Positions 4,258-63,134 of a stretch of DNA of 64,000 nt are shown one piece after another. The first letter of the stretch is position 1. Each line of letters starts with the position of its first letter. Source of the stretch: Planctomycetota bacterium (GTDB lineage Bacteria > Planctomycetota > Planctomycetia > Pirellulales > UBA1268); contig VGZO01000007.1 of assembly GCA_016872555.1 (NCBI GenBank), forward strand, positions 38,897-102,896, in the 5' to 3' direction. A program made the position numbers and the translations under genes. The notes under the pieces are model-generated. The model searched no databases and had not been told where the DNA came from. It was given only the letters and a program-made list of their open reading frames with translations.

Positions 4258-4282
4258 CCCCGAGTCCGCGGCGCCCCGGTCA

Positions 4283-5266
4283 TCACTCGGCCGAACCATG
4301 TTCCCGCCACCAGCGCACGGTGGCGGCGAGGCCCCGATCGAAATCCTGTTTCGGCCGCCAGCCAAGGAGCTCCTCTGCCCGGGAGATGTCGAGCGCACGC
4401 CGCGGTTGACCGTTCGGCTTCGTGGCATCCCAAACGATTCGCCCCGTATACCCGCACACGGCAGCGACTTTCGTCACCAGATCCCGGATCGAGATCTCCG
4501 TGCCACCCCCGAGATTGATGGGAATCGGTTCTTCGATGATCTCTGCCGCTGTGACGATCGCCTCGGCAGCATCATCTACGAAGAGAAACTCACGGGTCGC
4601 ATCGCCGGTGCCCCAGCAGACGATCTCATCGGCGCCGGCGACTCGCGCCTCCTCGCATTTACGGATCAGGGCCGGAATGACGTGGCTGGTCGAGGGATCG
4701 AAGTTGTCCCACGGTCCGTACAGATTCACCGGGACAACCACGGTCCCACGCATCCCGTACTGCCTACGGTAGCCGTCGAGCATGACGAAGATTGCTTTCT
4801 TCGCGATCCCGTAAGGAGCGTTCGTCTCCTCCGGATACCCGTCCCAAATCGTCTCCTCGCGAAATGGGATCGGGCAGTACTTCGGATAGGCACAGACGGT
4901 TCCGGTATGGACGAATTGCTCGACGTCATGACGGCGGGCATGCTCGACCAGATGCATGCCCATTGACATGTTGGCGAAGAAAAACCGCCCTGGCTCGGCC
5001 ATGTTCGCGCCGATTCCACCGACCTCGGCAGCCAGATGGATCACCACCTGGGGGCGTGCCGTCGCATACAGCCGCTCGACGTCGCTCTCGAGCGTCAGGT
5101 TGAACTCCCGACGGCGCGGCACGAACAGCCGGGTATCGCTGACACCTCGCTGTCGCAGGACGCGGCATACGGCCCGCCCGAGAAAACCGGCACCACCGGT
5201 GACGACGACACGTTTCTCGGCCAGATCGATCCGCGACACACTCAGCACTCCCCGCTCCGCCCCCAC
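4283..5266 (-). CDS. fcl: GDP-L-fucose synthase (GDP-4-keto-6-deoxymannose 3,5-epimerase/4-reductase)
   Basis: 327 aa. Rossmann motif VTGGAGFLG; LYGPWDNFDPSTSHVIPALIRK, WGTGDATREFLFVDD and KPNGQPRRALD are typical of Fcl/WcaG. Lies directly downstream of gmd. Confidence 0.88.
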   Translation of the reverse strand: MGAERGVLSVSRIDLAEKRVVVTGGAGFLGRAVCRVLRQRGVSDTRLFVPRRREFNLTLESDVERLYATARPQVVIHLAAEVGGIGANMAEPGRFFFANMSMGMHLVEHARRHDVEQFVHTGTVCAYPKYCPIPFREETIWDGYPEETNAPYGIAKKAIFVMLDGYRRQYGMRGTVVVPVNLYGPWDNFDPSTSHVIPALIRKCEEARVAGADEIVCWGTGDATREFLFVDDAAEAIVTAAEIIEEPIPINLGGGTEISIRDLVTKVAAVCGYTGRIVWDATKPNGQPRRALDISRAEELLGWRPKQDFDRGLAATVRWWREHGSAE

Positions 5267-5294
5267 CAGTACGACGCTCGTCGTCCGACACAGA

Positions 5295-6422
<1,128 letters not shown>

Positions 6423-6503
6423 TCACCCGATTTTCGCCGACGCACCACGATCGAGCCCAACGGGCCTCGACCACCGGGCTGGACCGACGATGGGCGAACC
6501 CAG

Positions 6504-7286
6504 TCACCCCCCGCCGCCAGCCGCTGTCGCGCCGCTCCCATGCGGAATGCCGGCATCCGCGGAGCGAACCACAGATCCGGTTGCCGTCGACTCGGCGGTT
6601 GAATCAGCGGGCTTCGTGTCAAGACGCTCCGCGACCGCACGGTCGAATGCAGGCAGCATCACCGACAGAAACTCCCGGCAGATTCCGCTCGACTGCGGCG
6701 CACTGACCGCGGTCTGATCGATGATCGCATACAGCTTGTACACCGCTGCCGTGCCGGCAAGTTCGATCCGCGCGATCTGCGGAGCAAGCCATTCGCCACG
6801 CACTCCATAGGTCCAATACACCCGGATGGTCTGGCCGGTCTTCCGAAACGTGCCCACGAACGCCTCCGCACGCCGGCCGTCTTCGAGGGTGATCGTCTCG
6901 CGGTGCTCCGTCTCCGCGATCTCGAACCCCGCGGCGGGGTAGCAGCGATCAGGGGTGTGCCCCGAGGCATCGTGGGGCGTTGCACAAATCACGAAGGCCG
7001 CGACTTTCGCGCCGGTGTCGTTGTTTTGATAGAGCCGCGAAACATGTCCGACGGCACCGGCGCGCTCCAGCTGCTCCTGACTCGACTCGACGTCGTCGAC
7101 ATACTTCCAAGGCCCAATCTCGGCGGGAAAGGCCTCCTCGAGGATCATCGCGCTGACCTTCAACTCACCGGCGATATCGCGATCCGACCAGCGCTCGGTC
7201 CAAACACCCTGGACCGCGGTGACGACGGCCACGAATGCGGCGGCGATGACCAACGGGATCACGGCTCTTGCCCGTTCGTTGAACAT
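6504..7286 (-). CDS. epsI: exosortase-associated EpsI family protein
   Basis: 260 aa with a single N-terminal TM (VIPLVIAAAFVAVVTAV). Conserved EpsI core HTPDRCYPAAGFE (H-x-P-x-x-C-x-x-x-x-G). Located in the exosortase operon. Confidence 0.8.
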   Translation of the reverse strand: MFNERARAVIPLVIAAAFVAVVTAVQGVWTERWSDRDIAGELKVSAMILEEAFPAEIGPWKYVDDVESSQEQLERAGAVGHVSRLYQNNDTGAKVAAFVICATPHDASGHTPDRCYPAAGFEIAETEHRETITLEDGRRAEAFVGTFRKTGQTIRVYWTYGVRGEWLAPQIARIELAGTAAVYKLYAIIDQTAVSAPQSSGICREFLSVMLPAFDRAVAERLDTKPADSTAESTATGSVVRSADAGIPHGSGATAAGGGG

Positions 7287-7343
7287 CTCCCGGTCTCCGG
7301 TAGGCGGGTGGTCGAGGTATCAGCCTTCGAACCGCGGTCGGTA

Positions 7344-9662
7344 TCAACGCAGAGCCTGGGTGTAGTTCCGCCTACTTTTCCCGAGGGCGACGCCGTGCAT
7401 GACGCAGCCGAGCACCGTGATCCCCACCGACCGGAGCCGACTGATCGAAGCGGTCAGATTCGGAACGCTCGTCACGTCGCGCATCACCGACACGACAGCG
7501 ACATCGGCCTGCTGACCGAGAAGCAGCGCGTCGGCCAATTCGATACACGGCCCTGAGTCGATGACCACGTGGTCGAAGGCATCGCGGTACTTACCAAGGA
7601 TCGTTTTCAGTTGCGGTCTGGACAAGGCGAGGATCGATTCCGTGTCACACCCGCCTGCCGTCACGGTGAACAGTCCGTCGATCTCGGTAGGCTGAATCAC
7701 CTCGTCGTTGCCGCACTCGCCCCGCAGGACCTCGGAGAGGCCGGTCCCGAGATCGATCTGGACGATCGAGTGGACCGAGGGATGCCGAAGGTCGCCATCG
7801 ATGAGCAACGTCCGCTTGCCCGACCGGGCGATGCTCGCCGCCAACTGGGCGGCAAGCGTGGTCTTCCCCTCGTGTTCACCGGAGCTCGTGACCAGGATCA
7901 TCTTGGCCGCATCCCGCCCCGCCTGCATCGTCAGGGTACGGATCGTGTCGATCGACTCCATGAAGCGGCCGACATCGGTCGGTGCACGCTTCGATCCGCG
8001 CCGACGCAAACGCGGCAGCGTGCCCAGCAGCCGCACACCGACGCGATTCGGGATCTCTTCGGGGTAGCTCAGTCGATCGCGAAGCAGCTCCGTGCCGATC
8101 GTGAGACCGACTCCGGTGGCGAATGCGAGCACGCCCGACAGTCCGGCGAGGACTGCACGGGAGACGTCGCTCGACGACTGCGGCACCGACGCCGGCTCGA
8201 GGAGGCGGACACGGGAGGGCATGTTGATGTCGACGCTCGACGCCTCGAGTTGCTTGCCCAAGAGACCGGTCACCTGCTCCAACTGGTCGATCTCACCCCG
8301 CCGCAGTTCCAGATCGGAGTTGGCGCGGCCGATCAGCAGCAGTTCCTCGGAGAGCTTCTGGTACTCGTTCCGGCTCTCCTCGAGAATCTTCTCGATCACC
8401 GCACGTCGGACCCTGAGCACGGCGGGGCTGACGGCGGCCTGACCCGGATTTCCGACGTTGCTCCGCAACTGCCTCGCGACCTGGGGCCGCAACTCGGCTC
8501 GCACTTCGTTGAGCTGCCGTACCGCCGATTGGTACTGATCCCGGAGCCGCCGGACCGATGGCTCGCTCAAACCACGGGCACTTCTCGCCATTTGCTCCGA
8601 GAGCGCCTGCCCGAGCGACCGGATCCGCTCCTTGACCTCTGCCACGGCGGGATCGCGATCGATGACGGCCTCGACCGCGTCGTCGCCCCTGTCTTCCGCG
8701 GAATCGTTCTCGGAGTCGAGCCCGTCGGCAATTGCCAACTCAGTGTCGATCCGCGATAGGTCATTCTCGGCATTCTCGACATCGGCCCGAATACCCGCCA
8801 ACTGATCCATCAAGAGGGCACGGTTGGTCGTGACTTCAGAACTCGAAAGGGAATTGGTCGTCCTGGCGATCTCGTAGAACTTCTCCTTGCGGCTGCGCAA
8901 CTCCGACTGACTCTCCTTGAATTTCTTCTCCAATTGATCCCGCTTCGCCAACCGGTCGGCGCGATCTTTGTTGACGATGTCGTCGAGGTAGCTCTCCGTG
9001 ACCGCGTTGAGGATCTTCGCCGTGTCCTCAGCGATCGGCCCTCGCAAGCGGAGGGTCACGACCTCCGACTCCTGAGGTGCCGACATGAGGATGTTCTTGG
9101 CCAGCCAGTCTGACGGATCGTCCTGCTCCTTGATCGTGGGCAGATCGGCAACACCGGGACGCCGCAGTGCGGAGTTCAAAACGAACGGGCTCTTGAGCAA
9201 CTGCATCTGGGTCTTGCGGTACTGATCCTGGACACCCGCGACCGGGCCCAGCATGCCCTGCTCCGAGCGCATCTGCAGCCAGACGACCGCTTCATAGCCC
9301 TTCGGCAGCAGGAACCATGTCGGCACCGCCACCAGCGGCGCCAGCAACGAGCCGATCAAGAGAGCCGGCAACCAACGTCGCCGGACCGCATGCAGCAACC
9401 GCCGGGCGTCGAACCCCGGCGGACCTTCGGCACTCGGGGGGACCGCGACCGTTTGGTAGTCGGGAAACGGCACGAGAGGCGTGTCGCCCCTGATCGTCAA
9501 ACCCCCGACCGACGGAGACGGGACAGCCCCAGCCGGAGTCGCTGCGAACCCGCCGTCGGCTTCGGACGCGGTCATGCCCGTCCACTCCTCTCGATGAAAC
9601 CCGCTGCCCCTCGAAACGATTCGAGCAGACGGCTCGACCAACCGCTCCCCGGCATCACCCAC
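7344..9662 (-). CDS. polysaccharide co-polymerase / tyrosine autokinase-like protein (GumC/Wzc/EpsG type)
   Basis: 772 aa with two TM segments flanking a long coiled-coil chain-length-determinant region. C-terminal P-loop ATPase has SSGEHEGKTT (Walker A), LLIDGDLRHP (A') and VVIDSGP (B). No Tyr-rich C-terminal tail is visible. Confidence 0.88.
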   Translation of the reverse strand: MGDAGERLVEPSARIVSRGSGFHREEWTGMTASEADGGFAATPAGAVPSPSVGGLTIRGDTPLVPFPDYQTVAVPPSAEGPPGFDARRLLHAVRRRWLPALLIGSLLAPLVAVPTWFLLPKGYEAVVWLQMRSEQGMLGPVAGVQDQYRKTQMQLLKSPFVLNSALRRPGVADLPTIKEQDDPSDWLAKNILMSAPQESEVVTLRLRGPIAEDTAKILNAVTESYLDDIVNKDRADRLAKRDQLEKKFKESQSELRSRKEKFYEIARTTNSLSSSEVTTNRALLMDQLAGIRADVENAENDLSRIDTELAIADGLDSENDSAEDRGDDAVEAVIDRDPAVAEVKERIRSLGQALSEQMARSARGLSEPSVRRLRDQYQSAVRQLNEVRAELRPQVARQLRSNVGNPGQAAVSPAVLRVRRAVIEKILEESRNEYQKLSEELLLIGRANSDLELRRGEIDQLEQVTGLLGKQLEASSVDINMPSRVRLLEPASVPQSSSDVSRAVLAGLSGVLAFATGVGLTIGTELLRDRLSYPEEIPNRVGVRLLGTLPRLRRRGSKRAPTDVGRFMESIDTIRTLTMQAGRDAAKMILVTSSGEHEGKTTLAAQLAASIARSGKRTLLIDGDLRHPSVHSIVQIDLGTGLSEVLRGECGNDEVIQPTEIDGLFTVTAGGCDTESILALSRPQLKTILGKYRDAFDHVVIDSGPCIELADALLLGQQADVAVVSVMRDVTSVPNLTASISRLRSVGITVLGCVMHGVALGKSRRNYTQALR

Positions 9663-9780
9663 GCCGGTTCACAAAGCGGGACACGATCACGGCAAACGCA
9701 GCGACAGCAGCGGAAAGTCGGATGGTTGCGGCCGATCTTTTCCGCGGAATCCCTCGACCGAACCTGACCTGAGTATACCG

Positions 9781-11100
9781 TCAGATTCCGGGCAGCAAGC
9801 CGTCTCGCCGCCCACGGACGACATCGTTGGAATCATGTTTTTTCGATGTCTTGGGGGCGACTTCCGGCGAGCCACCACCACCTCGACGGAGACGCTCCGC
9901 CGTCGTGCCGTAGGGGGCAAACGGCTTGGTCTCCGTCTCGACTGCAAGCCGTGCCGTTGGCTGCGAAACCGGAAGCAGCCCATCCGACGACACACGTCGA
10001 CCGGCGGTGGCCGCCGACGTCTGCAAGCCGATCGCAATCATTTCGGCCTCGTCCTCCACGACCATCAGTTTCGCGAGCAGATACTGCTCTCCGTACAGCA
10101 TCGCCAAGGCCATCGGCATCATGAACCAGCCGGCGAGGTCGTGAAAAACCATCTCGGCGATTTCTGACGTCGCGATCTGGTACAGCATCCCGGTGACGGT
10201 GATGCGGATGGAGTTGACGATCAATGCGATCGGGATCGCACTGGCGATGATAATCCCGTTCTCCCATGCCGGCCGGTCGCCGAGCATGACCAATGCCACC
10301 GACAACGCGATGAAGATCGTGAGCATTCGCAAGCCACTGCAGGCATCGACGACGCCAAGGTGCATCTCACCGATGACGATCTGGTTACCTTCCTGGAACG
10401 CCTCCAATCCGAACGTCTGCAGTGCGAACGTGCTCACCGTCGTCGCCAAGCCCTGCAACGGCCCGAGAAGGTAACGCGTTGCTTCGTCGGGCAACGGAAA
10501 CATGAAGATCAGGAACGCGATCGGCGCCCAGCCCCACCGCAAACCGCTCCAACCGCACGACAGCAGGAACGCCCCCGCGACGGCCGGCACGAAGGTGTAC
10601 ATGTCGATCGTGACGATGCGGAAGGAGGCAGCGCCGAGCCGAATGCCGAACGCCAACGCGAGCAGGGCCAAGCCCGCCAACCGCGCCGAATCGGTCACCG
10701 GCTCGAGCCGATCGCGCCACCACAGCAACATGCCGGCGGAGAACAGCGGCACGAGCCAGCCGTGCGAGTACTGGGCGTTGCTCCAACTGGCATGGGCGTT
10801 GAGCAAGCCGGGCCAGTAGGCGTAGATCATCAGGCCGACGAAGACCAGCATGGTCACCAGCGGACCGCGCTGGGCCGGTTCGCCAAGATCGCGGCGCAGA
10901 TTGCGGAGCCGACGCACCCAGCCTTCGAGCAGCCCTTCATCCTCGGCCTCAGGTCGGCCGACCACGCCGCCGGCCGATCCTTCCCGGGGCATCACGGCCA
11001 GCCCACCGGCGGAAGTCGGTGATTCGATCGAGGTGCGTTCTATGCCCTGACCAAAGGCATTGACCGTTCGATCCTTGGCTTTCGGCGTCAGCGGCAACAT
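9781..11100 (-). CDS. exosortase (EpsH/Xrt family transpeptidase)
   Basis: 439 aa, polytopic. Family motifs VVDACSGLRML (catalytic Cys), NSIRITVTG (Arg) and FHDLAGW (His). About 90-aa soluble extensions at both termini. Start uncertain (internal ATG at MPREGS...). Confidence 0.88.
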   Translation of the reverse strand: MLPLTPKAKDRTVNAFGQGIERTSIESPTSAGGLAVMPREGSAGGVVGRPEAEDEGLLEGWVRRLRNLRRDLGEPAQRGPLVTMLVFVGLMIYAYWPGLLNAHASWSNAQYSHGWLVPLFSAGMLLWWRDRLEPVTDSARLAGLALLALAFGIRLGAASFRIVTIDMYTFVPAVAGAFLLSCGWSGLRWGWAPIAFLIFMFPLPDEATRYLLGPLQGLATTVSTFALQTFGLEAFQEGNQIVIGEMHLGVVDACSGLRMLTIFIALSVALVMLGDRPAWENGIIIASAIPIALIVNSIRITVTGMLYQIATSEIAEMVFHDLAGWFMMPMALAMLYGEQYLLAKLMVVEDEAEMIAIGLQTSAATAGRRVSSDGLLPVSQPTARLAVETETKPFAPYGTTAERLRRGGGGSPEVAPKTSKKHDSNDVVRGRRDGLLPGI

Positions 11101-11365
11101 TGAGCAACCCGAGCGTGAAGACCCCTCTCGCCTGCCTGGCAGTCATCAGGGGGGCAGGACCGGGGATGCCGACGGGTCTGTCGGCGACTTGATCGCGGCC
11201 CTCGGCCCCTGTGCCAGACAAGCGCTTCCCTCACGCTCGCTGGCGAGATCGAAGTCTACACGGTCACGGAAGGGGGGGAAACGGTTTCGGTGAGTCCGCC
11301 CGGCGGCTGCCATCGGCTGGAGCGACACTGCCGGCGGCTGAACGCACCGCCGATCCGTACCGCTT

Positions 11366-12616
11366 TTGCCCGGGGTTTTGGTACGCTCCGCTACGAACGC
11401 GGCCTCGGGCCTACCCACCACCCCTGTCGATCCTGACGGTTGGAGTCACGAAAACGACATGAGTTCGTGGGACAGTGGTGCGGACCATTCCGGTCGCGAC
11501 GCGGCATCCTCGGCCGATGACGCCCTGCCAGACAACTCCTTCCAGGATCGGCCCTCGGCTGCGAACCGACGTCCACGCGCGTGGGCGTCGGTCGCCGGCA
11601 CGGTCGGACGGGTGGCAGGAACGCTGCTCCTGCTTGCCTTTGCCCTGCGAAATGTCGAGTGGAACACGCTGGCATCCGATCTCCGGACGGCCGACTGGCG
11701 CTGGTGGTTGGCGGGGTTGACGGCCGGCGTTCTCGTCCAGGTGGTCGCGGCGGTTCGCTGGGGTTCGCTGGCGCGGCCGATCGGCTTCCGACTCTCGACC
11801 GCGACATTCATCCGCCGGTTTTTCGAGGGGGCGTTTTTCAGCCTCTGCCTGCCCGGTTCGATCGGCGGCGACGTCGTCAAAGCATTCCGCCTGTCGGACA
11901 CTGTCGACGGCCGACTGCTGGCGGGCTGCACGATCCTCGCCGACCGGATCACCGGTCTCACGGCGCTTCTGGTTCTGGCTTTCACGGCGCTCGTCTCGCA
12001 GCACTACACGCTGCCGGTCACCGCGACGATCGCGGTCGGAACGGCCCTCTTGCTGCTGGCGATGACCGGCGCGTTCCTCGGCGTACGGATGATCGATCGG
12101 GTGATCGCCCGCCTTCCTGAGAACCACCGCGTGAAGCGGTTCCTCATCTATCTCCTCCCCTACCAGATGCGCCCCAGCCTGATTGTGCGGGCCCTTGCCT
12201 GGAGCATGGTGGTGCAGATGGGGGGCGCGTTCGCCGTCTCCCTCGTGGGTCGGTCGGCCGGGGTCGATCTGCCGCTGGCAGTATGGTTCGGATCGGTGCC
12301 CCTGGTCGCCGTGGCAATGGTCCTGCCGATCAGCATCAGTGGCGTCGGCGTCCGCGAAGGTGGTCTTGCGCTCCTGCTCAAACCCCACGGCGTCGCGCCG
12401 GAGCAGGCGGTCGCGATCGGTGTATTGTGGTTTCTGACGACGATCGTTTGCGGTCTCCTCGGAGGCGCGTCGTTTCTCGCTGAACGCCGACCGGCGACGA
12501 TCTCGCTCCCCCAAGGACTGCAGTCGACCGCCGCCCCCCCCGGGGTGAGCATCCGGCACTCGGGCGGGCCGGCACGACCCGGCCATGCCGCGGTCGGCCC
12601 GGGGAGCGATCGCTAG
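11366..12616 (+). CDS. flippase-like / lysylphosphatidylglycerol-synthase TM-region family membrane protein (UPF0104)
   Basis: 416-aa ORF, multi-TM. The pattern LRNVEWNTLASDLRTADWRWWLAG...LPGSIGGDVVKAFRL resembles the LPG_synthase_TM/UPF0104 family. Alternative ATG start at 11459. Divergent from the exosortase gene. Confidence 0.75.
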   Translation: MPGVLVRSATNAASGLPTTPVDPDGWSHENDMSSWDSGADHSGRDAASSADDALPDNSFQDRPSAANRRPRAWASVAGTVGRVAGTLLLLAFALRNVEWNTLASDLRTADWRWWLAGLTAGVLVQVVAAVRWGSLARPIGFRLSTATFIRRFFEGAFFSLCLPGSIGGDVVKAFRLSDTVDGRLLAGCTILADRITGLTALLVLAFTALVSQHYTLPVTATIAVGTALLLLAMTGAFLGVRMIDRVIARLPENHRVKRFLIYLLPYQMRPSLIVRALAWSMVVQMGGAFAVSLVGRSAGVDLPLAVWFGSVPLVAVAMVLPISISGVGVREGGLALLLKPHGVAPEQAVAIGVLWFLTTIVCGLLGGASFLAERRPATISLPQGLQSTAAPPGVSIRHSGGPARPGHAAVGPGSDR

Positions 12617-55459: not shown

Positions 55460-55679
55460 GACAGGAAAACCTCGCCGAATAATCCGAGCGGGCAGCGCGG
55501 GCTGCCATGAAGAGCTTTCCCCGCGATTCTAGCACACGCCACCGTGCCGGCCGCCGCGCCGGCGGGTGTGCTCCAGACCGCGGGGTACGGAAGCAGGGGA
55601 ACCTCCGCCACAGTCCCCGGAAGGCCCCGCCGCCACCCGGTCCGGGCGGGTGGTATCGTCTGGCGGGAGGCCACTGCCG

Positions 55680-56762
55680 ATGAAACCCGCGCCCGGTACG
55701 ATCCATCATGTCGCTGCCGCGGGTGCCGGGCAGACGCTGGCCGCGTTCCTGCGCGGAGCCGAGCAGGCGAGCTGGTCGCAGGTCCAGCGGCTGATCCGCA
55801 CGCGCCGCGTGCAGATCCACGGCAATGTCTGCACCGATGCCGGCCGCCGGCTGCGCGACGGCGACGTCGTCAAGATCCTCCCCACCTCGGCGCCGGCGCC
55901 ACCGCGCGCCGACCAGCTGCGGATCGTCCACCTCGACGCGGCGGTGGTCGTGGTCGACAAGCCGTCGGGGATCACCACGGTGCGCCACGCCGAGGAGCGG
56001 TCGTGGCCGGCCCGGCGCCGGCAGGTCCAACCGACGCTCGACGAGCTCCTCCCGGCGGCGATCGCCGCCCACGGCGGACGGCGGCGCGGCGGCGGGCGGC
56101 TGGTGCCGGTGCGCGCCGTCCACCGCATCGACCGGGAAACCAGCGGGCTGGTGGTGTTCGCGCGGACGGTGCCGGCGGAACGGATCCTCGCCGAACAGTT
56201 CCGCGCCCACACCACGCGGCGCCGCTACCTCGCGTTGTGCGTCGGCCGGGTCGGCGCCGGCACGATCGTCTCGACGCTGGTTCGCGACCGCGGCGACGGC
56301 AGGCGCGGGTCGTCCGACGAGGGCGAGGGGAAACGGGCGGTGACCCACGTCCACCCCGTCGAGCACTTCGGCGACGACGCCACGCTCGTCGAATGCGTCC
56401 TCGAGACGGGGCGGACGCACCAGATCCGCATCCATCTCGCCGAGAGCGGCCATCCGCTGTGCGGCGAGCGCGTCTACTCGGCGCCCCGGGGGAGCGGCGG
56501 AGTCGATCGCTCCGGGGCGCGGCGGGTGATGCTCCACGCGGCCCGGTTGGGGTTTGTCCATCCCGAGTCGGGCGCCGACCTCGATTTCGAGTCGCCGCTG
56601 CCCGCCGACATCCGTGCGGTCATCGCCCGGCTGCGCGGCTCCGCCGGCCCGCGGCCATCGGCACCACGCCCCGATGCCGGCCTCACTCGGCCGCGACCAC
56701 CTCGCCCCCCGAGCGGGTCGCGACGGCCTGCCAAACGGCGGCCTCGACCCCGTCGGCCATGA
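55680..56762 (+). CDS. RluA-family 23S rRNA pseudouridine synthase (RluD-like, with S4 domain)
   Basis: Start set at ATG 55680 (GGGAGG upstream). S4-like [18 protein letters not shown]. Catalytic [16 protein letters not shown]; also GRTHQIRIH. The basic C-terminal tail overlaps the convergent DUF1559 gene by 80 nt. Confidence 0.85.
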
Positions 56763-57693
56763 ACCGGCTCGAGCCGTCGGCCCACAGGACGTTGACCCCG
56801 CCGGGATGGCGGCTTCGCGCCCCCCGCCAGCCGTAGCCGGCGTACATCAGGCGGGGATCGGCCGTCGCCATGTTGACGCCGAGGCAGTCGATCTCGGGAT
56901 CGTTGGGAAGGCGGCGGTGGTTGTAGAGGCAGGTCCGGTACTCGCCGTTGGCCCAGGAGAATCCGCGCAGGTCGGTGAAGTTCCAGTAGAAGGCGGACCG
57001 GCACCCGGCATCTGACAGGGGAAACGCGAACGTGAACGCATAGCCGTTCGCCGCGGTGATCGAGCCGCGGTTGGTGGTCGCGACCGGACCGTCGCCGAGG
57101 TTGCTCTCCGCGAACGCCACCGTCTTGGAAAGTCCGTCGGTCACGTCGCGCGGCTTCGTCTGGGAATTCACGAAGAACATCCCGTCGGTGTCGAACGGCG
57201 TGCCCCCGCCGACCCCGGTCCCGGTGCAGGCGGCATAGTTCGTCGGCCCGAACAGCGGCGACACCGGGCCATTGCGATCCGACGGGCAGAGAAACAGCGG
57301 GATCGTGAGGGCGACGATCGGCTTGTTCTGCGGGGCGATATCGGCCGGCGTCAGGCCGATGTACAGCGGCACGGAGAGGTCGAGGCTGCGGAGCAGCGAT
57401 TCCTGCTCGTAATACGGTGCGAGGTGGGCGAGCACCGACCAGCGGAAGAACTGGTGCGGCCAATTGGGCTTCGCCGCCCAGGCGCGGGCCTCGGCCCCCA
57501 CCGGATACCGTCCCCTCGCTCCCTCGTGATTGGCCGCGGCGATGCCGATCTGGCGCAGGTTGTTGACACACTGCGTCCGCCGGGCGGCCTCGCGGGCTGC
57601 CTGCACGGCCGGCAGGAGCAGCGCCACGAGGCCGCCGACGATGGCGACGACGACGAGCAGTTCGACGAGCGTGAATCCGCGCCGGGCGATCAT
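56683..57693 (-). CDS. DUF1559 protein with prepilin-type N-terminal cleavage/methylation domain
   Basis: 336 aa. [50 protein letters not shown] is the canonical planctomycete pseudopilin-like N-terminus. C-terminal [16 protein letters not shown]. The start overlaps the upstream stop (ATGA). Confidence 0.92.
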
Positions 57694-58796
57694 GGTCGGC
57701 GGAGTCTACTCCCCGCCCTGCGCCGTCGCCACGCACACCAGGCGGCCAATCCCGCGCCCGTCACCGCCAGCGTGACGCTCCCCGGCTCCGGGACGGCGAC
57801 GATGCCGCCGATCTGCCCCAAGCCGCTGGAAAACGTCGGACCGGCCGAGCCGTCGGCAAAGAACGAGTAGATCGCCCCGTCCCCGGCCGGGCTCCCCACC
57901 AGCAACCGATCGCCCTGCATCATCGTCATCACCCCGGCGCCGAACGGAGCACCAGTGGAGGCGAACGAAGTGGTGTTCAACGTGGCGAGGTCCGTTTTCA
58001 GCACGTTGCCATTCATGATGCTGGCGGTGTAGAGGGAACTACCGCTGATCACCAGGCCTGTCGGGCCGAGGAGACCGCTGGCGCCGTTGGCGATCACCTC
58101 GCCCACGTACGCTCCGGTGGCGTCGAACTTCTTGACCGGCCCGGTCGCGGCGAACGTTTGGAAACTGTAGGTCTGGTCGGCGACGTACAGACTGCCGTCG
58201 GGGCCGATTGCCAACCCGGGGCTGCTCGCGAGATTGCCGCCGACGGTGTAGTCGGAGACGGTGTAATTGAACGACGATCCGCTTTGGCCCACGCTCACCT
58301 TCACCACCGGACCGGTGTTTTGGTAGAGGGGATTTCGGCCGACGAGCAGGTCATTTCCCTTGAGGACGATGCTGGCGGGAAACACCCCGGCCGCAGCCAG
58401 CGAAACCACCTCCGGCGACAGTGTCCCCGTGGTCACGTCGAACCGGCGGAGCTGCGGGCCGACGGTCGTGGAGTTACCTGATTCGCCGATATACAGCGCG
58501 CCGTCGGGGCCGAGCGCGAGCGCCGCCGGGCTGAAGAGCGTTCCGTCGGGCAGGAGCGTGGTCAACGTTCCGGCGGGGTTCGCCGAGTCGTATCGCGACA
58601 GGCTGCCATTTGTCAGGCTCGCCACATACACCGTGTCGGCGACCGCGAGGCCGGCGAGGGCGACCACGGCCAAGCCTGCCACCAGCAACCCCATGCGCGG
58701 CAACCGGCGGATGCCGCCCGCTCCCGATCGCCCCTCACCACCACCGCGCCGACCTCGCCGGTCGGTCCCCACCGAACGCACTCCCGAACGCTTCAT
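57690..58796 (-). CDS. PEP-CTERM-anchored NHL/beta-propeller repeat protein
   Basis: 368 aa. GGGAGAG lies upstream of ATG 58796. Signal/anchor [19 protein letters not shown]. Repeated GPDG(A/S)LY(I/V)... propeller blades. The C-terminus [28 protein letters not shown] is a PEP motif plus TM plus Arg cluster. Confidence 0.85.
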
Positions 58797-58846
58797 CGAG
58801 CTCTCCCGTTTTCAACGCGGCTCCCGGGGGCTGCGCACGCAGCCTT

Positions 58847-58872
58847 CCGGTACCTCGACGGCGAGGTACCGG
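58847..58872. other. perfect 11-bp-stem hairpin/palindrome (CCGGTACCTCG-ACGG-CGAGGTACCGG), with a second GC hairpin at 58829-58844
   Basis: Read directly. Both lie 35-75 nt upstream of the PEP-CTERM gene start and downstream of tRNA-Gln on the same strand. No U-tract follows. Confidence 0.5.
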
Positions 58873-59325
58873 GTCGTCGTGACCCGTTCGACCGCATGAC
58901 AGTCCTCACGGCGACACCACGGCGCCGTCAACCAACGCCCAGACAGTCCGTGGACCGAGCCCTCGCGGGACTCGTTCCACGGCGTCTTCGCGCGGACTCC
59001 GGGCGCGGCGGACAGGCGGCGTCCGGAGCAAAGACGCTCCGGGGGGCAAATCGCGGGCCAAACGGAACGTCCGCCGGGGCCGGTGCGCGCCTGCCGGAGC
59101 GAACCGCTGCCAGACGGCAGTGTTTCAACTGAAAACCAGCGGCGCCCGGCCGTCGGTCATCGCGTTGCTTTCGCGATGGCAAGAAAGGCGAACTGTCGAC
59201 GTGGGGCAATTTGCCCCACGGTTCCGCGTGCCTTGGAGCCGACAGCACCGTGATGGGCCGCCGTGGATGGTGCGAATCGTCCCACGCAGTCGCCGCAGCG
59301 AGCGGGAACCGGCTCGATTGGACAG

Positions 59326-59396
59326 TTGCCCGGCTAGGATTCGAACCTAGACAAAGGGAACCAAAATCCCTTGTGCTACCGTTACACTACCGGGCA
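59326..59396 (-). tRNA. tRNA-Gln (anticodon UUG)
   Basis: Hand-folded on the minus strand. Acceptor TGCCCGG/CCGGGCA, D arm GTGT-AACGGTA-GCAC, anticodon stem AGGGA/TCCCT with loop TTTTGGT, T arm CTAGG-TTCGAAT-CCTAG, discriminator A. Confidence 0.9.
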
Positions 59397-59475
59397 GTCG
59401 TCGTCTCGACGCATGATACCCGCAGGCGGGGCAGCCGGACCGGGCGGCGAACGGTTTGGCCACGCGAGCCGTCGC

Positions 59476-60270
59476 TCATCGTGGTGACGACTCGCCGCCT
59501 GACCCCGTCCGCAGCTCTCCGGGCGTTGATCCGTCGCCGGCTGCGGTCGTCGCGGGCGCGTCGCTGGGACCGCCGGCGGCAGCGGTCTCCCCCGGCTTCA
59601 CCAGCCGGTTGGTGACCGCGAACGAGAGTTGCTCCAACTCGATCGCCAGATCGACGGAAACGACCTGGACCTGCGGTGGCAGGGCGAGCGTCACCGGGGC
59701 GAAGTTGACGACCCCTTCGACCCCCGCGGCGACGAGCCGGTCGGCGACCTGCTGGGCCTGGTCGGCAGGCACGACGATCATCCCCAGGCGGATGCCGTGC
59801 TCGCGGACGATCCGCGGCAACTCCGCGAGCGGGAGGATCGGCAAGCCCTGGATGACCTGCCCGACCTTGGCCGGGTCGGCGTCGAACACCGCCTGGATGG
59901 AGAAGTTCTGCCGGCCGAAGCCGCGGTAGCCGAGCAGGGCCTGCCCGAGGTTGCCGGCGCCGACCATCACCACCGGCCAGAAATGGTTGGTGCCGAGGAT
60001 GTCGCGCATCGCCCGGATCAACTCGTCGCAGCGGTAGCCGACACCCGGGTAGCCGAACTGCCCGAAGAAACCGAGGTCCTTCCGCACCTGGGCGTCACTG
60101 AACCCCAGGAGCGTGCCGAGTTGCCCCGACGAAATCGTCTGCTGACCGGCAGCCTGGAGCCGCTGGAGCTCGCGGAGGTACAGGCTCAACCGGCTGACCA
60201 CCACCTTCGGCACCGAGACGTCCGAAGGGGGCTCGCCGGCTGGGGGTCGCGTGTCGCTCATGTCGGCCAT
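59476..60270 (-). CDS. rex: redox-sensing transcriptional repressor Rex
   Basis: 264 aa. Winged helix RLSLYLRELQRL...ISSGQLG..., Rossmann VVMVGAGNLGQALLGY, and a low-complexity C-terminal tail. Confidence 0.9.
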   Translation of the reverse strand: MADMSDTRPPAGEPPSDVSVPKVVVSRLSLYLRELQRLQAAGQQTISSGQLGTLLGFSDAQVRKDLGFFGQFGYPGVGYRCDELIRAMRDILGTNHFWPVVMVGAGNLGQALLGYRGFGRQNFSIQAVFDADPAKVGQVIQGLPILPLAELPRIVREHGIRLGMIVVPADQAQQVADRLVAAGVEGVVNFAPVTLALPPQVQVVSVDLAIELEQLSFAVTNRLVKPGETAAAGGPSDAPATTAAGDGSTPGELRTGSGGESSPR

Positions 60271-60545
60271 GCGGTGCGCGTGTCATCCCCCCGAATCGGC
60301 ACGACTCTACCGACCCGCCCCCGTCACCCGCAACGAACGCGGGTCCGGGATGTCAATCTGTGCCGAATGTCCGGCCACTGGTGCCCTGGAAAAACGGTGC
60401 TGGCTGCGTGTTTTGGTCAATCTGCGTGGTTTTTGTGGCCGATGGTTTCCTAGGCGTGCCGGCGGACCGCGCCGGCCCCACTCCCCATCGTTTCCACCCG
60501 AACCACTCTTTGCTCAGGAGCACCTCCTCGCCAGAGGAAGCAGCC

Positions 60546-63134
60546 ATGAAGACCACGTGGACAGCCTGTCTGCTGCTTGTCGCCGGGATCGGATGGGCGG
60601 CCGCCGCCCGCGCCGATCTCGCCGACATGCCGGCCGACGGTGCCGGGACCGCGGCGCTTTCCGCCGCCGATCCCTGCATCGAGGGCGAACCGACGCCCGC
60701 CGACGACCCCGTCATCGACGCCCCGTGCAGCCCGACGCGGCTGGTCCGGGACGTGGTGTTCGAGAACCGTGACTTCACCTGCTGGAAGACCGTCTCCGAG
60801 CGGCAGGTGGAGCAGCGCGAAATCGACTGCATCCGCTTTGAGAGGGAAACGTCCTTCAAGGAACAGGAATACACGGTCTGCACGCCGGTGTGGGAGTCGC
60901 GCACCCGGACGGTGAACTACACCCTCACCAAGCCGGTGTGGGAGACGATCACCAAGGAGATCCCCTACACCGTCTGCACGCCGGTGTGGGAGACGCGGCA
61001 GCGCGAAATCCGCACCACGGTCTGCAAGCCGGTGTGGGAGACGCTCACCAAGGAGATCCCCTACACCGTCTGCAAGCCGGTCTACGAGACGCGCCAGCAG
61101 ACCTACACCGTCTGCAAGCCGGTGTGGGAGACGCTCACCAAGGAGATCCCCTACACCGTCTGCAAGCCGGTCTACGAGACGATGAGCCGCGAGATCCCCT
61201 ACACGGTCTGCAAGCCCGTCTACGAGACCCGCCAGCAGGTCTACACGGTCAACAAGCCCGTTTACGAGACCATGTCCCGTGAGATCCCGTACACGGTCAA
61301 CAAGCCCGTCTACGAGACCCGCCAGCAGGTCTACACCGTCAACAAGCCGGTCCACGAGACCATGTCCCGCGAAGTCCCCTACACGGTCAACAAGCCCGTC
61401 TACGAGACCCGCCAGCAGGTCTACACGGTCAACAAGCCGGTCTACGAGACCATGTCCCGCGAGGTCCCTTACACGGTCTGCCGGCCGGTGTACGAGACCC
61501 GTGAGCAGGTCTACACGGTCAGCAAGCCGGTCTACGAGACGATGACCCGCGAGATCCCCTACACGGTCTGCCGGCCGGTGTACGAGACCCGTGAGCAGAC
61601 CTACACCGTCTGCAGGCCGGTCCAGGAGACCCGCACCAAGGAGATCCCCTACACCGTCTGCAAGCCGGTGTACGAGACCCGCGAGCAGACCTACACCGTC
61701 TGCAAGCCGGTCCAGGAGACCCGCACCAAGGAGATCCCCTACACCGTCTGCAAGCCGGTGTGGGAGACCCGTGAGCGCGACGTCTGCAAGACGATCTGCA
61801 AGCCGGTCCACTACACCAAGACCGTGCAGGTCCACTGCGGCCGCTGGGAGACCGAGGTCTGCGAGATCCCCGGACCGGTGATCACCCGCTGCATCCGCGA
61901 GCCGGGCTGCTGGGTGTGGGACGAATGCCAGTGCAAGTGCGTCTACCAGCCCGGCGAGGTGCGCCGCGTCGAGGAGCAGTGCCCGCCTCGCCAGGTCACC
62001 AAGAAGCGGTGGGTGACCGAGATCCGCGAGAAAGAAGTGCAGTGCGTCCGCCACGAGCGTGAGACCGTCGTCGAGAAGCGCTGCGAGAAGGTCTGCCGGA
62101 TGGTCCCCGTGCAGCGGATCAAGACCTGCACCTACACGGTCTGCCGGATGGTGCCGGAGCAGCGCTGCCGCACCTACCAGGTCTGCCGGATGGTCCCCGA
62201 GCAGCGCGTCCGCACCTGCACCTACACCGTCTGCCGGATGGTGCCGGAGCAGCGCTGCCGCACCTACCAGGTCTGCCGGATGGTGCCCGAGCAGCGGGTC
62301 AAGACCTGCGCCTACCAGGTCTGCCGGATGGTGCCCGAGCAACGCGTCCGCACCTACCAGGTGTGCCGCATGGTCCCCGAGCAGCGCGTCCGGACCTGCA
62401 CCTACCAGGTCTGCCGGATGGTGCCCGAGCAGCGCGTCCGCACCTACCAGGTGTGCCGCATGGTCCCCGAGCAGCGTGTCCGGACCTGCACCTACCAGGT
62501 CTGCCGGATGGTGCCCGAGCAGCGCGTCCGCACCTACCAGGTGTGCCGCATGGTCCCCGAGCAGCATGTCCGGACCTGCACCTACCAGGTCTGCCGCATG
62601 GTGCCCGAGCAGCGCGTCCGCACCTACCAGGTGTGCCGCATGGTCCCTGAGCAGCATGTCCGGACCTGCACCTACCAGGTCTGCCGCATGGTGCCCGAGC
62701 AGCGCGTCAAGACCTGCTGCTACAAGGTCTGCCGGATGGTGCCCGAGCAGCGTGTGCGCACCTACCAGGTGTGCCGCATGGTCCCCGAGCAGCGCGTCAA
62801 GACCTGCTGCTACAAGGTCTGCCGGCTGGTCCCCGAGGAGCAGGTCCGGACCTGCACCTACAAGGTCTGCCGGATCGAGAAGGAGCAGCGCGTCAAGACG
62901 TGCACCCAGCGGGTCTGCCGGATGGTCACCGAGCAGTGCTCGAAGGAAGTGCCCTACAAGGTGTGCACGATGGTCCGCGAAACCCGCACCCGCCAGGTGC
63001 CGGTGACGACGGTCCGGCCTGTGCACGAGACGAAGACCATCGACGTGGTGCGGATGGTGCCCAAGCGGGTGCCGTACACCGTGACGCAGCGCGTCCCGAT
63101 GACGGTCTACCGCGAGGAACCCGTCTGCCAGTGA
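60546..63134 (+). CDS. secreted Cys-rich YTV-type tandem-repeat protein (two repeat modules)
   Basis: Start set at ATG 60546 within ORF 60360..63134. Signal peptide MKTTWTACLLLVAGIGWAAAARA. About 20 units of YTV[CN][KR]PV[YWHQ]ET..., a Cys-rich linker, then about 20 units of Y[QTK]VCRMVPEQRV[RK]T(C[TCA]). Followed by a strong terminator. Confidence 0.88.
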   Translation: MKTTWTACLLLVAGIGWAAAARADLADMPADGAGTAALSAADPCIEGEPTPADDPVIDAPCSPTRLVRDVVFENRDFTCWKTVSERQVEQREIDCIRFERETSFKEQEYTVCTPVWESRTRTVNYTLTKPVWETITKEIPYTVCTPVWETRQREIRTTVCKPVWETLTKEIPYTVCKPVYETRQQTYTVCKPVWETLTKEIPYTVCKPVYETMSREIPYTVCKPVYETRQQVYTVNKPVYETMSREIPYTVNKPVYETRQQVYTVNKPVHETMSREVPYTVNKPVYETRQQVYTVNKPVYETMSREVPYTVCRPVYETREQVYTVSKPVYETMTREIPYTVCRPVYETREQTYTVCRPVQETRTKEIPYTVCKPVYETREQTYTVCKPVQETRTKEIPYTVCKPVWETRERDVCKTICKPVHYTKTVQVHCGRWETEVCEIPGPVITRCIREPGCWVWDECQCKCVYQPGEVRRVEEQCPPRQVTKKRWVTEIREKEVQCVRHERETVVEKRCEKVCRMVPVQRIKTCTYTVCRMVPEQRCRTYQVCRMVPEQRVRTCTYTVCRMVPEQRCRTYQVCRMVPEQRVKTCAYQVCRMVPEQRVRTYQVCRMVPEQRVRTCTYQVCRMVPEQRVRTYQVCRMVPEQRVRTCTYQVCRMVPEQRVRTYQVCRMVPEQHVRTCTYQVCRMVPEQRVRTYQVCRMVPEQHVRTCTYQVCRMVPEQRVKTCCYKVCRMVPEQRVRTYQVCRMVPEQRVKTCCYKVCRLVPEEQVRTCTYKVCRIEKEQRVKTCTQRVCRMVTEQCSKEVPYKVCTMVRETRTRQVPVTTVRPVHETKTIDVVRMVPKRVPYTVTQRVPMTVYREEPVCQ
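60870..61830 (+). repeat. coding tandem repeat module A (42/48-nt units, 90-bp super-period)
   Basis: For example, 61201-61290, 61291-61380 and 61381-61470 align base-for-base with few substitutions. Confidence 0.9.
62091..62940 (+). repeat. coding tandem repeat module B (42/48-nt units, 90-bp super-period; 8 phased copies at 62131-62850)
   Basis: Copies start at 62131, 62221, 62311, 62401, 62491, 62581, 62671 and 62761. In a 40-nt-shifted register, 62351-62440 versus 62441-62530 differ at 1 position by my reading. Confidence 0.92.

Follow-up and report, generated by a model that had tools for sequence, protein, structure and literature searches.

The minor-pilin/PilY1 (PilC) tip complex of type IV pili represents a case in which a pilin-like protein is encoded together with a Sec-exported beta-propeller protein, and the pilin island of Pseudomonas aeruginosa is one in which pilA and an accessory gene, located beside a tRNA gene, form allelic cassettes that are replaced together. 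Here, we describe a two-gene locus with features of both in a bacterium of the Planctomycetota (order Pirellulales; GenBank assembly GCA_016872555.1, contig VGZO01000007.1, positions 38,897 to 102,896), the whole 64,000-nucleotide (nt) stretch of which was analyzed and is referred to as the window. The pair consists of a gene for a beta-propeller protein with a PEP-CTERM-type tail (PROP) and, directly downstream, a gene for a DUF1559 protein with a prepilin-type start. A preliminary description of the window had drawn attention to both genes and to the overlap of their coding regions, but it lacked the feature that is the most informative one, the exchange of the pair as a cassette between close relatives.

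PEP-CTERM proteins are substrates of the exosortase (EpsH) system. More than 65% of their genes are single-gene operons, and a sigma-54 site has been suggested for them (Haft et al. 2006, PMC1569441). The fate and attachment of these proteins after exosortase action are not settled. DUF1559 proteins constitute the largest paralogue family of planctomycetes, with 40-100 fast-diverging paralogues of unknown function, including 68 copies in Planctopirus limnophila (two of which are essential) and 91 in Tuwongella immobilis; they are membrane-associated, and their genes are often flanked by genes for signal-peptide proteins (PMC10632474, PMC8567305). The pairing is described nowhere in the literature that we searched on DUF1559, H-X9-DG, SBP_bac_10 and PEP-CTERM with prepilin, and the supplement that lists the DUF1559 genes of P. 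limnophila contains no match for PEP-CTERM or exosortase.

Both open reading frames (ORFs) are present on the minus strand where the preliminary description had placed them (Table 1). The TGA stop codon of the 368-residue ORF and the ATG of the 336-residue ORF share the four letters ATGA, read from 57693 to 57690 (sequence CGACCATGATCGCC; the coupled junction as it stands on the minus strand of the window is GACCATGATCGCC). Independent promoters together with a lack of co-expression had been named as a finding that would speak against the proposal; neither a promoter nor a terminator was detected between the two genes, and there is no room for either.

The pairing is conserved in both directions of search. 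A genome scan with one genome per species revealed 59 loci with a propeller relative, all in metagenome-assembled genomes (MAGs), and a DUF1559 orthologue lies directly downstream on the same strand in approximately 43 of them. The partner is 64-93% identical to the DUF1559 protein of the window, and because the other DUF1559 copies in the same loci reach only 30-47%, it represents a specific orthologue. When metagenome contigs were probed with the alignment of these DUF1559 orthologues, 80 loci were obtained, and a propeller gene was adjacent on the same strand in 72 (67 upstream and five downstream); seven of the remaining eight had too little upstream sequence to judge and one had no propeller gene. 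After removal of duplicates, genome and metagenome contigs together provided 100 distinct propeller-then-DUF1559 junctions: ATGA in 82, TGATG in eight, a 13-nt overlap in two and gaps of 3-20 nt in eight, although the ATGA and TGATG counts may be slightly inflated because an overlapping ATG was favoured as the start where present. The fixed, conserved pairing that had been proposed is therefore stronger than expected, with 90 of the 100 junctions overlapping by 4 nt or 1 nt.

Approximately 30 loci share one neighbourhood, in which a YTV-repeat protein gene, rex, tRNA-Gln and the pair are followed by a convergent rluD, purA, uppS and cdsA; in the nearest relative, MAG REEB424, the flanking proteins are 97-98% identical to those of the window. 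A scan of 24 syntenic genome loci placed tRNA-Gln upstream of the propeller gene in 23. Two further contexts are known. In loci L006, L035 and L055, the pair is kept in a different neighbourhood, with its genes overlapping or 3 nt apart, and in L038, L042 and L078-L081 the gene order is reversed, with a spacer of about 400 nt, a variant propeller tail (in L038 and L042, VPEIDP in place of VPEP) and H-X9-DS in the DUF1559 protein. Protein distances of the two partners across 31 loci are correlated (r = 0.76), above the correlation with the flanks, and a partial Mantel test that controlled for rluD and rex gave r = 0.60 (p = 0.0002), with 0.045 for the propeller against rluD.

Comparisons between close relatives indicate that the pair is a hypervariable cassette beside tRNA-Gln, whose alleles are swapped by recombination. 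Between the window and locus L147, the leader, putative signal peptide, PEP-CTERM tail and DUF1559 start are 94-100% identical at the nucleotide level, whereas the propeller body (about 57860-58655) is only 59-73% identical; the L147 contig stops 225 nt into the DUF1559 gene. Compared with L002, the window shows mostly 95-99% nucleotide identity on the rluD/purA side and 56-74% in the propeller gene, and the middle of the DUF1559 gene dips to 81-87%. In the comparison of L009 (5001-6800) with L049, both genes of the pair are 49-77% identical between flanks of 81-100%, and the edges are sharp, one at the propeller start and the other approximately 130 nt before the DUF1559 stop.

Synonymous divergence (dS) follows the same pattern, with values of 1.45 for the propeller, 1.25 for the DUF1559 gene and 0.23-0.36 for the flanks between L009 and L049, and of 0.95, 0.25 and 0.07-0.12, respectively, between the window and L002. 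In such comparisons of close relatives, the propeller or the pair exceeds its flanks four- to eightfold. Ratios of nonsynonymous to synonymous divergence (dN/dS) are 0.2-0.3 for the propeller and 0.12-0.15 for the DUF1559 gene, and among pairs of loci with an rluD protein distance below 0.05, distances rise to 0.56 for the propeller and 0.31 for the DUF1559 protein, whose co-varying segment spans residues ~133-233. The pairwise alignment of L099 with L107 was uninformative on replacement. The raised synonymous divergence shows that old alleles have been imported and that relaxed constraint alone is not the cause, and because dS of both genes lies far above that of the flanks in L009 versus L049, both genes are replaced together as a unit between close relatives. 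Replacement by very divergent alleles suggests that diversifying selection acts on a surface structure, which might be an adhesin or a target of phages or grazers. The occurrence in other contexts and in reversed order, the correlated distances and the unit replacement argue for selection on the pair itself beyond inherited synteny.

Table 1. Positions of the gene pair, its parts and related features in the window
Feature	Position	Strand	Basis
Propeller gene (PROP), 368 aa, PEP-CTERM NHL-type	57690..58796	minus	ORF, family alignment, AlphaFold2 (AF2) model
DUF1559 / H-X9-DG prepilin-type (pseudopilin-like) gene, 336 aa	56683..57693	minus	ORF, family models
ATGA start/stop overlap (translational coupling)	57690..57693	minus	sequence; kept in relatives
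Propeller, probable N-terminal export signal, residues 1-53: Arg/Gly-rich extension (1-34), hydrophobic core, AVA/D	58638..58796	minus	read by eye; inferred
Propeller, six-bladed body, residues 54-334	57795..58637	minus	AF2 strands 54-336
Propeller, PEP-CTERM-type tail, residues 335-368: VPEP, hydrophobic helix, RRRR, then 8 residues	57693..57794	minus	sequence, AF2
DUF1559 protein, prepilin leader MIARRG/FTLVE and hydrophobic N-terminal helix, residues 1-30	57604..57693	minus	TIGR02532, N_methyl
DUF1559 protein, H-X9-DG motif, H296...D306 G307	56773..56808	minus	TIGR04294 at residues 292-312
Shine-Dalgarno-like GGGAGAG, 4 nt before the ATG at 58796	58801..58807	minus	sequence
Two GC-rich hairpins, 11-bp and 6-bp stems, 32 nt upstream of the propeller start	58829..58872	minus	RNA fold
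tRNA-Gln(UUG), directly upstream of the pair	59325..59396	minus	Rfam; conserved neighbour
Exosortase, EpsH family	9781..11100	minus	PF09721 196 bits; TIGR02602 140 bits (cut-off 105.55)
Chain-length-determinant/tyrosine-kinase protein	7344-9662	minus	TIGR01007 115 bits
EpsI-like protein	6504-7286	minus	PF11984 53.6 bits

The propeller protein was modelled by AF2 with six blades and a mean predicted local distance difference test (pLDDT) of 82, exceeding 90 over most of residues 54-334; residues 1-33 have low pLDDT and are followed by a helix (35-50), the propeller strands (54-336) and a C-terminal helix (338-361). The NHL model PF01436 matches it with 23.7 bits (cut-off 20) and also matches 23 of 25 relatives, and NHL repeats are its sole match by sequence among solved structures. 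Foldseek returned generic six-bladed YWTD/Kelch/NHL folds (E ~1e-10), the top matches having query-normalised template-modelling scores mostly of 0.50-0.59; these top matches are binding-type propellers, with lactonases lower. A reading of the protein as a lactonase or another enzyme was considered and is unsupported by the family models and the top structural matches, and the SMP-30/gluconolactonase model PF08450 gave no match to the window propeller at E<=1 and weak ones in 6 of 25 relatives. At least 341 close homologues were found. The family proper is compact, comprising 35 clusters at 50% identity (E<=1e-30), and its module recurs within long proteins of surface type that have several domains. 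In the alignment, the mature part begins with ADTVY in all homologues, whereas the 34-residue Arg/Gly-rich extension in front of the putative signal-peptide core (58695-58796) occurs only in the sublineage of the window; it is probably translated, since a conserved GGAG-type motif precedes the start of the long ORF.

The C-terminus of the propeller protein has the PEP-CTERM layout of a PEP motif, a transmembrane helix and a basic cluster that ends eight residues before the stop codon, and it is the sole such tail that strict and relaxed six-frame pattern scans detected in the 64 kb, in agreement with what the preliminary description had claimed. VPEP is invariant in the 25-sequence family alignment (A1), PF07589 matches 22 of 25 relatives at E<=0.01 (best E = 6.5e-07), TIGR02595 matches 18 of 25 at E<=1, and several relatives carry the NCBI name PEP-CTERM protein.

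The partner exceeds the cut-offs of all relevant family models, namely PF07596 (163.7 bits, cut-off 23.3), TIGR04294 for H-X9-DG (40.2, cut-off 19) and the prepilin models TIGR02532 (27.7, cut-off 16.3) and N_methyl (23.4, cut-off 21.2), which bears out its earlier labelling as a DUF1559/prepilin-type protein. Its N-terminus, in which MIARRG/FTLVE is followed by a hydrophobic helix, is a class III (prepilin) signal, and six-frame pattern scans found GFTLVELL as the only prepilin-type start in the 64 kb. Among 85 distinct orthologues, position -1 of this site is Gly in 67 and Ala in 18, position +1 is Phe in 39, Val in 34 and Leu in 10, and Glu at +5 is found in all 85. The H-X9-DG motif has DG in 81 orthologues and DS, DA or DT in 18. 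The orthologue alignment (A2) has a mean column identity of 73%, with four Cys, H296 and D306 invariant and no invariant lysine; the four Cys fit an extracytoplasmic location, as do the export signals of both proteins and the presence of the propeller module in surface-type proteins. Sequence matches to solved structures cover the N-terminal pilin helix only. As a separate observation, given Ala at -1 (18 of 85) and Val or Leu at +1 (44 of 85, over half), some orthologues may escape cleavage by prepilin peptidase.

The leader between tRNA-Gln and the propeller gene is 528 nt long and noncoding, and the only Rfam match over 56000-60500 is tRNA-Gln. GGAGA is kept in all six leader sequences of the window's sublineage, which supports the long ORF start at 58796. 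The two strong hairpins reported earlier lie exactly where they had been placed and are kept only in this sublineage, in which two leader haplotypes (the window and L147 versus L002, L148, L149 and L150) differ by compensatory changes that preserve both stems. The hairpin region folds just 1.6 standard deviations better than shuffled sequences (whole-region z-score -1.6), and distant loci have hairpins elsewhere, often immediately behind the tRNA or some 95 nt ahead of the start codon, none at a fixed equivalent position. No sigma-70-like promoter was found at the pair locus, and no Rex operator was matched in the window, although rex lies upstream of the pair. Terminator-like sites number three against 1.5 expected by chance, all within coding sequence. 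A sigma-54 site was rejected as a general feature, as only 8 of the 120 regions upstream contain any such motif and its number across the window is that expected by chance. One sigma-54-like sequence, TGGCCCGCGATTTGC at 59045-59060 on the minus strand, forms a perfectly conserved island with L002 in an otherwise diverged intergenic region.

The exosortase gene is present about 46.6 kb from the pair, close to the 47 kb given in the preliminary description, and this distance means nothing in itself. Its product fits no named subtype (the XrtD-like model scores highest, with 183 bits where 400 is the cut-off) and is the presumed processing enzyme of the propeller tail. The surrounding exopolysaccharide (EPS) region (4000-12000) has a GC content of 0.64-0.65 versus approximately 0.70 and holds GDP-mannose dehydratase, GDP-fucose synthase-like, EpsI-like, chain-length/tyrosine-kinase, exosortase and flippase-like genes.

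Several further observations concern the neighbours of the pair. In nearly all syntenic loci, the tRNA-Gln gene stays beside the pair even where extra DNA separates rex from the tRNA, and a strong hairpin follows the tRNA immediately in many loci. A 924-residue cysteine-rich protein of planctomycete cell-wall type with 25 YTV repeats (PF07639, 679 bits) is encoded at 60360-63134 on the plus strand, and in about 28 loci its gene shares synteny with rex and the pair. On the other side, a convergent pseudouridine synthase ORF (55566-56762, plus strand) ends in a Pro/Arg-rich C-terminal extension of low complexity, which makes it run 80 nt (56683-56762) into the 3' end of the DUF1559 gene; in L064 there is no such overlap. 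Beyond rluD, L022 (4797-6219) and also L034, L036, L040, L047 and L053 encode another DUF1559 paralogue, a distant one, and after it a small protein whose N-terminus resembles a signal peptide, which fits the published remark on flanking genes.

With moderate confidence, we consider the locus a conserved operon of two genes that encode proteins with a joint role at the cell envelope, and a pilin-like carrier with a propeller head is the mechanism that we judge most likely. Both genes would be transcribed from one leader downstream of tRNA-Gln, and because the DUF1559 gene starts inside the propeller stop codon, termination and reinitiation would provide both proteins in roughly equal amounts and in the same place. 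The propeller protein would be exported by a Sec-type route and then anchored in the cytoplasmic membrane through its PEP-CTERM helix, its Arg cluster lying on the inner side, while the class III signal of the DUF1559 protein would place its N-terminal helix in the same membrane and its globular body in the periplasm. To judge from these signals, the two proteins would be tethered by opposite ends, the propeller by its C-terminus and its partner by its N-terminus, with both globular parts periplasmic and able to form a cognate complex. Prepilin peptidase may then free the pilin-like protein into a fibre resembling those of type II secretion or type IV pili, and exosortase may remove the anchor of the propeller, which would be displayed at the surface as a ligand-binding head on a pilin-like subunit, similar to a minor-pilin/PilY1 tip. 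The locus would thereby link exosortase and prepilin-peptidase sorting, as had been supposed.

A number of observations weigh against this reading. Most loci belong to one syntenic lineage of uncultured freshwater planctomycetes, and the counts given above are not independent events. The tail of the window propeller itself marginally misses both curated PEP-CTERM cut-offs (TIGR02595, 11.9 versus 16; PF07589, 20.2 versus 20.7), so that the model check proposed in the preliminary description is passed by the family, with its invariant VPEP, but not by the protein for which it was proposed. An AF2 model of the DUF1559 protein from 27 orthologues had a pLDDT of 37 and a predicted template-modelling score of 0.26, with no usable fold. 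Neither pilus or secretion machinery nor a prepilin peptidase was found in the scanned ORFs of the window, which lie outside about 14.5-30.9 kb. Each gene also occurs without the other. Lone propellers, which keep the PEP-CTERM tail and have no prepilin-type neighbour, are found in Chthoniobacterales, other Verrucomicrobiota, Kiritimatiellia and Phycisphaerales, and unpaired propellers nest within the paired diversity in distance clustering. Conversely, a clade represented by L127 (461-1477), L128 and L136 (1848-2864) has the DUF1559 orthologue, with H-X9-DS, in rluD/purA synteny and no propeller; a 214-residue membrane protein is encoded upstream where the propeller would be. The partnership is thus strongly preferred, not obligatory. 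In the 1.1-Mb contig of an Akkermansiaceae MAG (L028, 4827-5988), 1162 bp are 90.7% identical to the Pirellulales locus L006, and the similarity ceases approximately 30 nt past the start of the DUF1559 gene, of which only a truncated remnant is left; the propeller gene of this MAG seems to have been transferred between phyla, unless binning or assembly has produced an artefact.

The separate occurrence of the two genes also favours the alternative that they encode co-expressed but non-interacting surface proteins, which share a promoter and are replaced together through adjacency in a recombination hot spot at the tRNA. Replacement is indeed partial in some comparisons, as only the propeller body differs from L147 and the DUF1559 gene is much less diverged from L002 than the propeller gene, and the correlated distances could stem from joint transfer without interaction. 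No propeller-DUF1559 fusion was present among the five longest propeller representatives. Rosetta-stone support was therefore discarded as a line of evidence, since these five proteins join the propeller to other surface repeats and not to DUF1559. On the other hand, independence of the products does not readily explain why 82 of 100 junctions retain the 4-nt overlap although the proteins span 45-93% divergence, why adjacency persists in three contexts including reversed gene order, or why the partner is a particular, well-conserved orthologue when each genome has tens of paralogues (PMC10632474). We regard this alternative as fairly unlikely.

In a bolder extension of the carrier mechanism, DUF1559 proteins in general would be pilin-like carriers of cognate Sec-exported partners on a pilus-like fibre, with the present pair as the prototype, and in its boldest form the exosortase would act as a Gram-positive-type pilus sortase that cuts the propeller at the PEP motif and joins it covalently to the pilin-like partner or the fibre. 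Exosortase and prepilin-peptidase pathways would then constitute one surface-display route, and the DUF1559 expansions of planctomycetes would represent a library of exchangeable carrier-head modules. We give this extension a small chance; a covalent propeller-DUF1559 link has no positive support here, and an invariant lysine is lacking in the DUF1559 protein.

It is improbable that the DUF1559 protein is instead a secretion adaptor, working in a type-II-like piston that pushes the propeller as cargo through the outer membrane, after which the propeller would be released or attached to exopolysaccharide rather than borne on a fibre. Such a role would agree with the resemblance of the DUF1559 N-terminus to GspG and type IV pilins, with the probable Sec signal and the PEP-CTERM signal of the propeller, which predict a destination beyond the inner membrane (Haft 2006, PMC1569441), and with the common location of DUF1559 genes beside signal-peptide genes (PMC8567305). 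It is at odds with the lack of secretion machinery nearby in the scanned window ORFs and with the score of the protein against the GspG model TIGR01710, which is 32.9 bits against a cut-off of 88.85. To our knowledge, moreover, type II systems do not use one pseudopilin per cargo.

The sub-cut-off scores of the window tail, together with VPEIDP in L038 and L042, could also mean that the tail is a membrane anchor only and no exosortase substrate, in which case the pair would be two periplasmic proteins tethered to the inner membrane. This is highly unlikely in view of the invariant VPEP, the PF07589 matches and the NCBI names of the relatives described above, and of the exosortase, EpsI-like protein and EPS genes that the same genome encodes. 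Finally, chance or inherited adjacency without function, to which the 68-91 DUF1559 copies per genome in cultured species (PMC10632474, PMC8567305) and the whole housekeeping neighbourhood shared by about 30 loci of one lineage might point, is extremely improbable and already largely refuted, because the pair persists in differing neighbourhoods with a conserved overlap, stays together although it is the most variable and an actively exchanged segment, and gives a significant partial Mantel test.

Cassette replacement between near-identical genomes points to the pair as a surface determinant at the level of strains among the abundant, uncultured planctomycetes of fresh water, with relevance to phage, grazer or attachment specificity. 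In addition, a single-copy DUF1559 orthologue with a fixed, coupled and co-varying partner makes the questions of DUF1559 function and of PEP-CTERM protein fate experimentally concrete.

Compared with the described PEP-CTERM/exosortase system (PMC1569441), the propeller shares the C-terminal PEP motif, helix and basic cluster, the long upstream noncoding region (528 nt to the tRNA) and a genome with exosortase, EpsI-like, chain-length/tyrosine-kinase and sugar-nucleotide genes; its N-terminus is a putative signal peptide. It differs in that its gene is translationally coupled to a pilin-like gene rather than monocistronic, its tail is marginally below the cut-offs, the exosortase belongs to no named subtype and the pair has no generally conserved upstream sigma-54 site of the proteobacterial type. 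With other DUF1559/SBP_bac_10/H-X9-DG proteins (PF07596, TIGR04294), the partner shares its full architecture, from the prepilin leader and hydrophobic helix through the DUF1559 body to H-X9-DG at the C-terminus. What sets it apart from the fast-diverging paralogues is its membership in one well-conserved group of orthologues, in which both the partner gene and the genomic position are fixed. Its N-terminal 80 residues align with the major pseudopilin GspG (TIGR01710 residues 1-82; PDB 5wda), while its 250-residue body has no GspG counterpart and its score remains below the cut-off of that family.

The PilY1 tip complex and the pilin island resemble the present locus in the encoding of a pilin-like protein together with a propeller, in joint cassette replacement and in being situated next to a tRNA gene. 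Neither PilY1 nor known minor pilins showed detectable sequence homology to the pair; its propeller is of the six-bladed NHL type with a PEP-CTERM anchor, and the locus has one pilin-like gene rather than a set and no pilus machinery genes nearby. What is new here, relative to all these systems, is that envelope proteins of two known kinds are associated in a conserved manner and that they behave, unexpectedly, as a hypervariable cassette.

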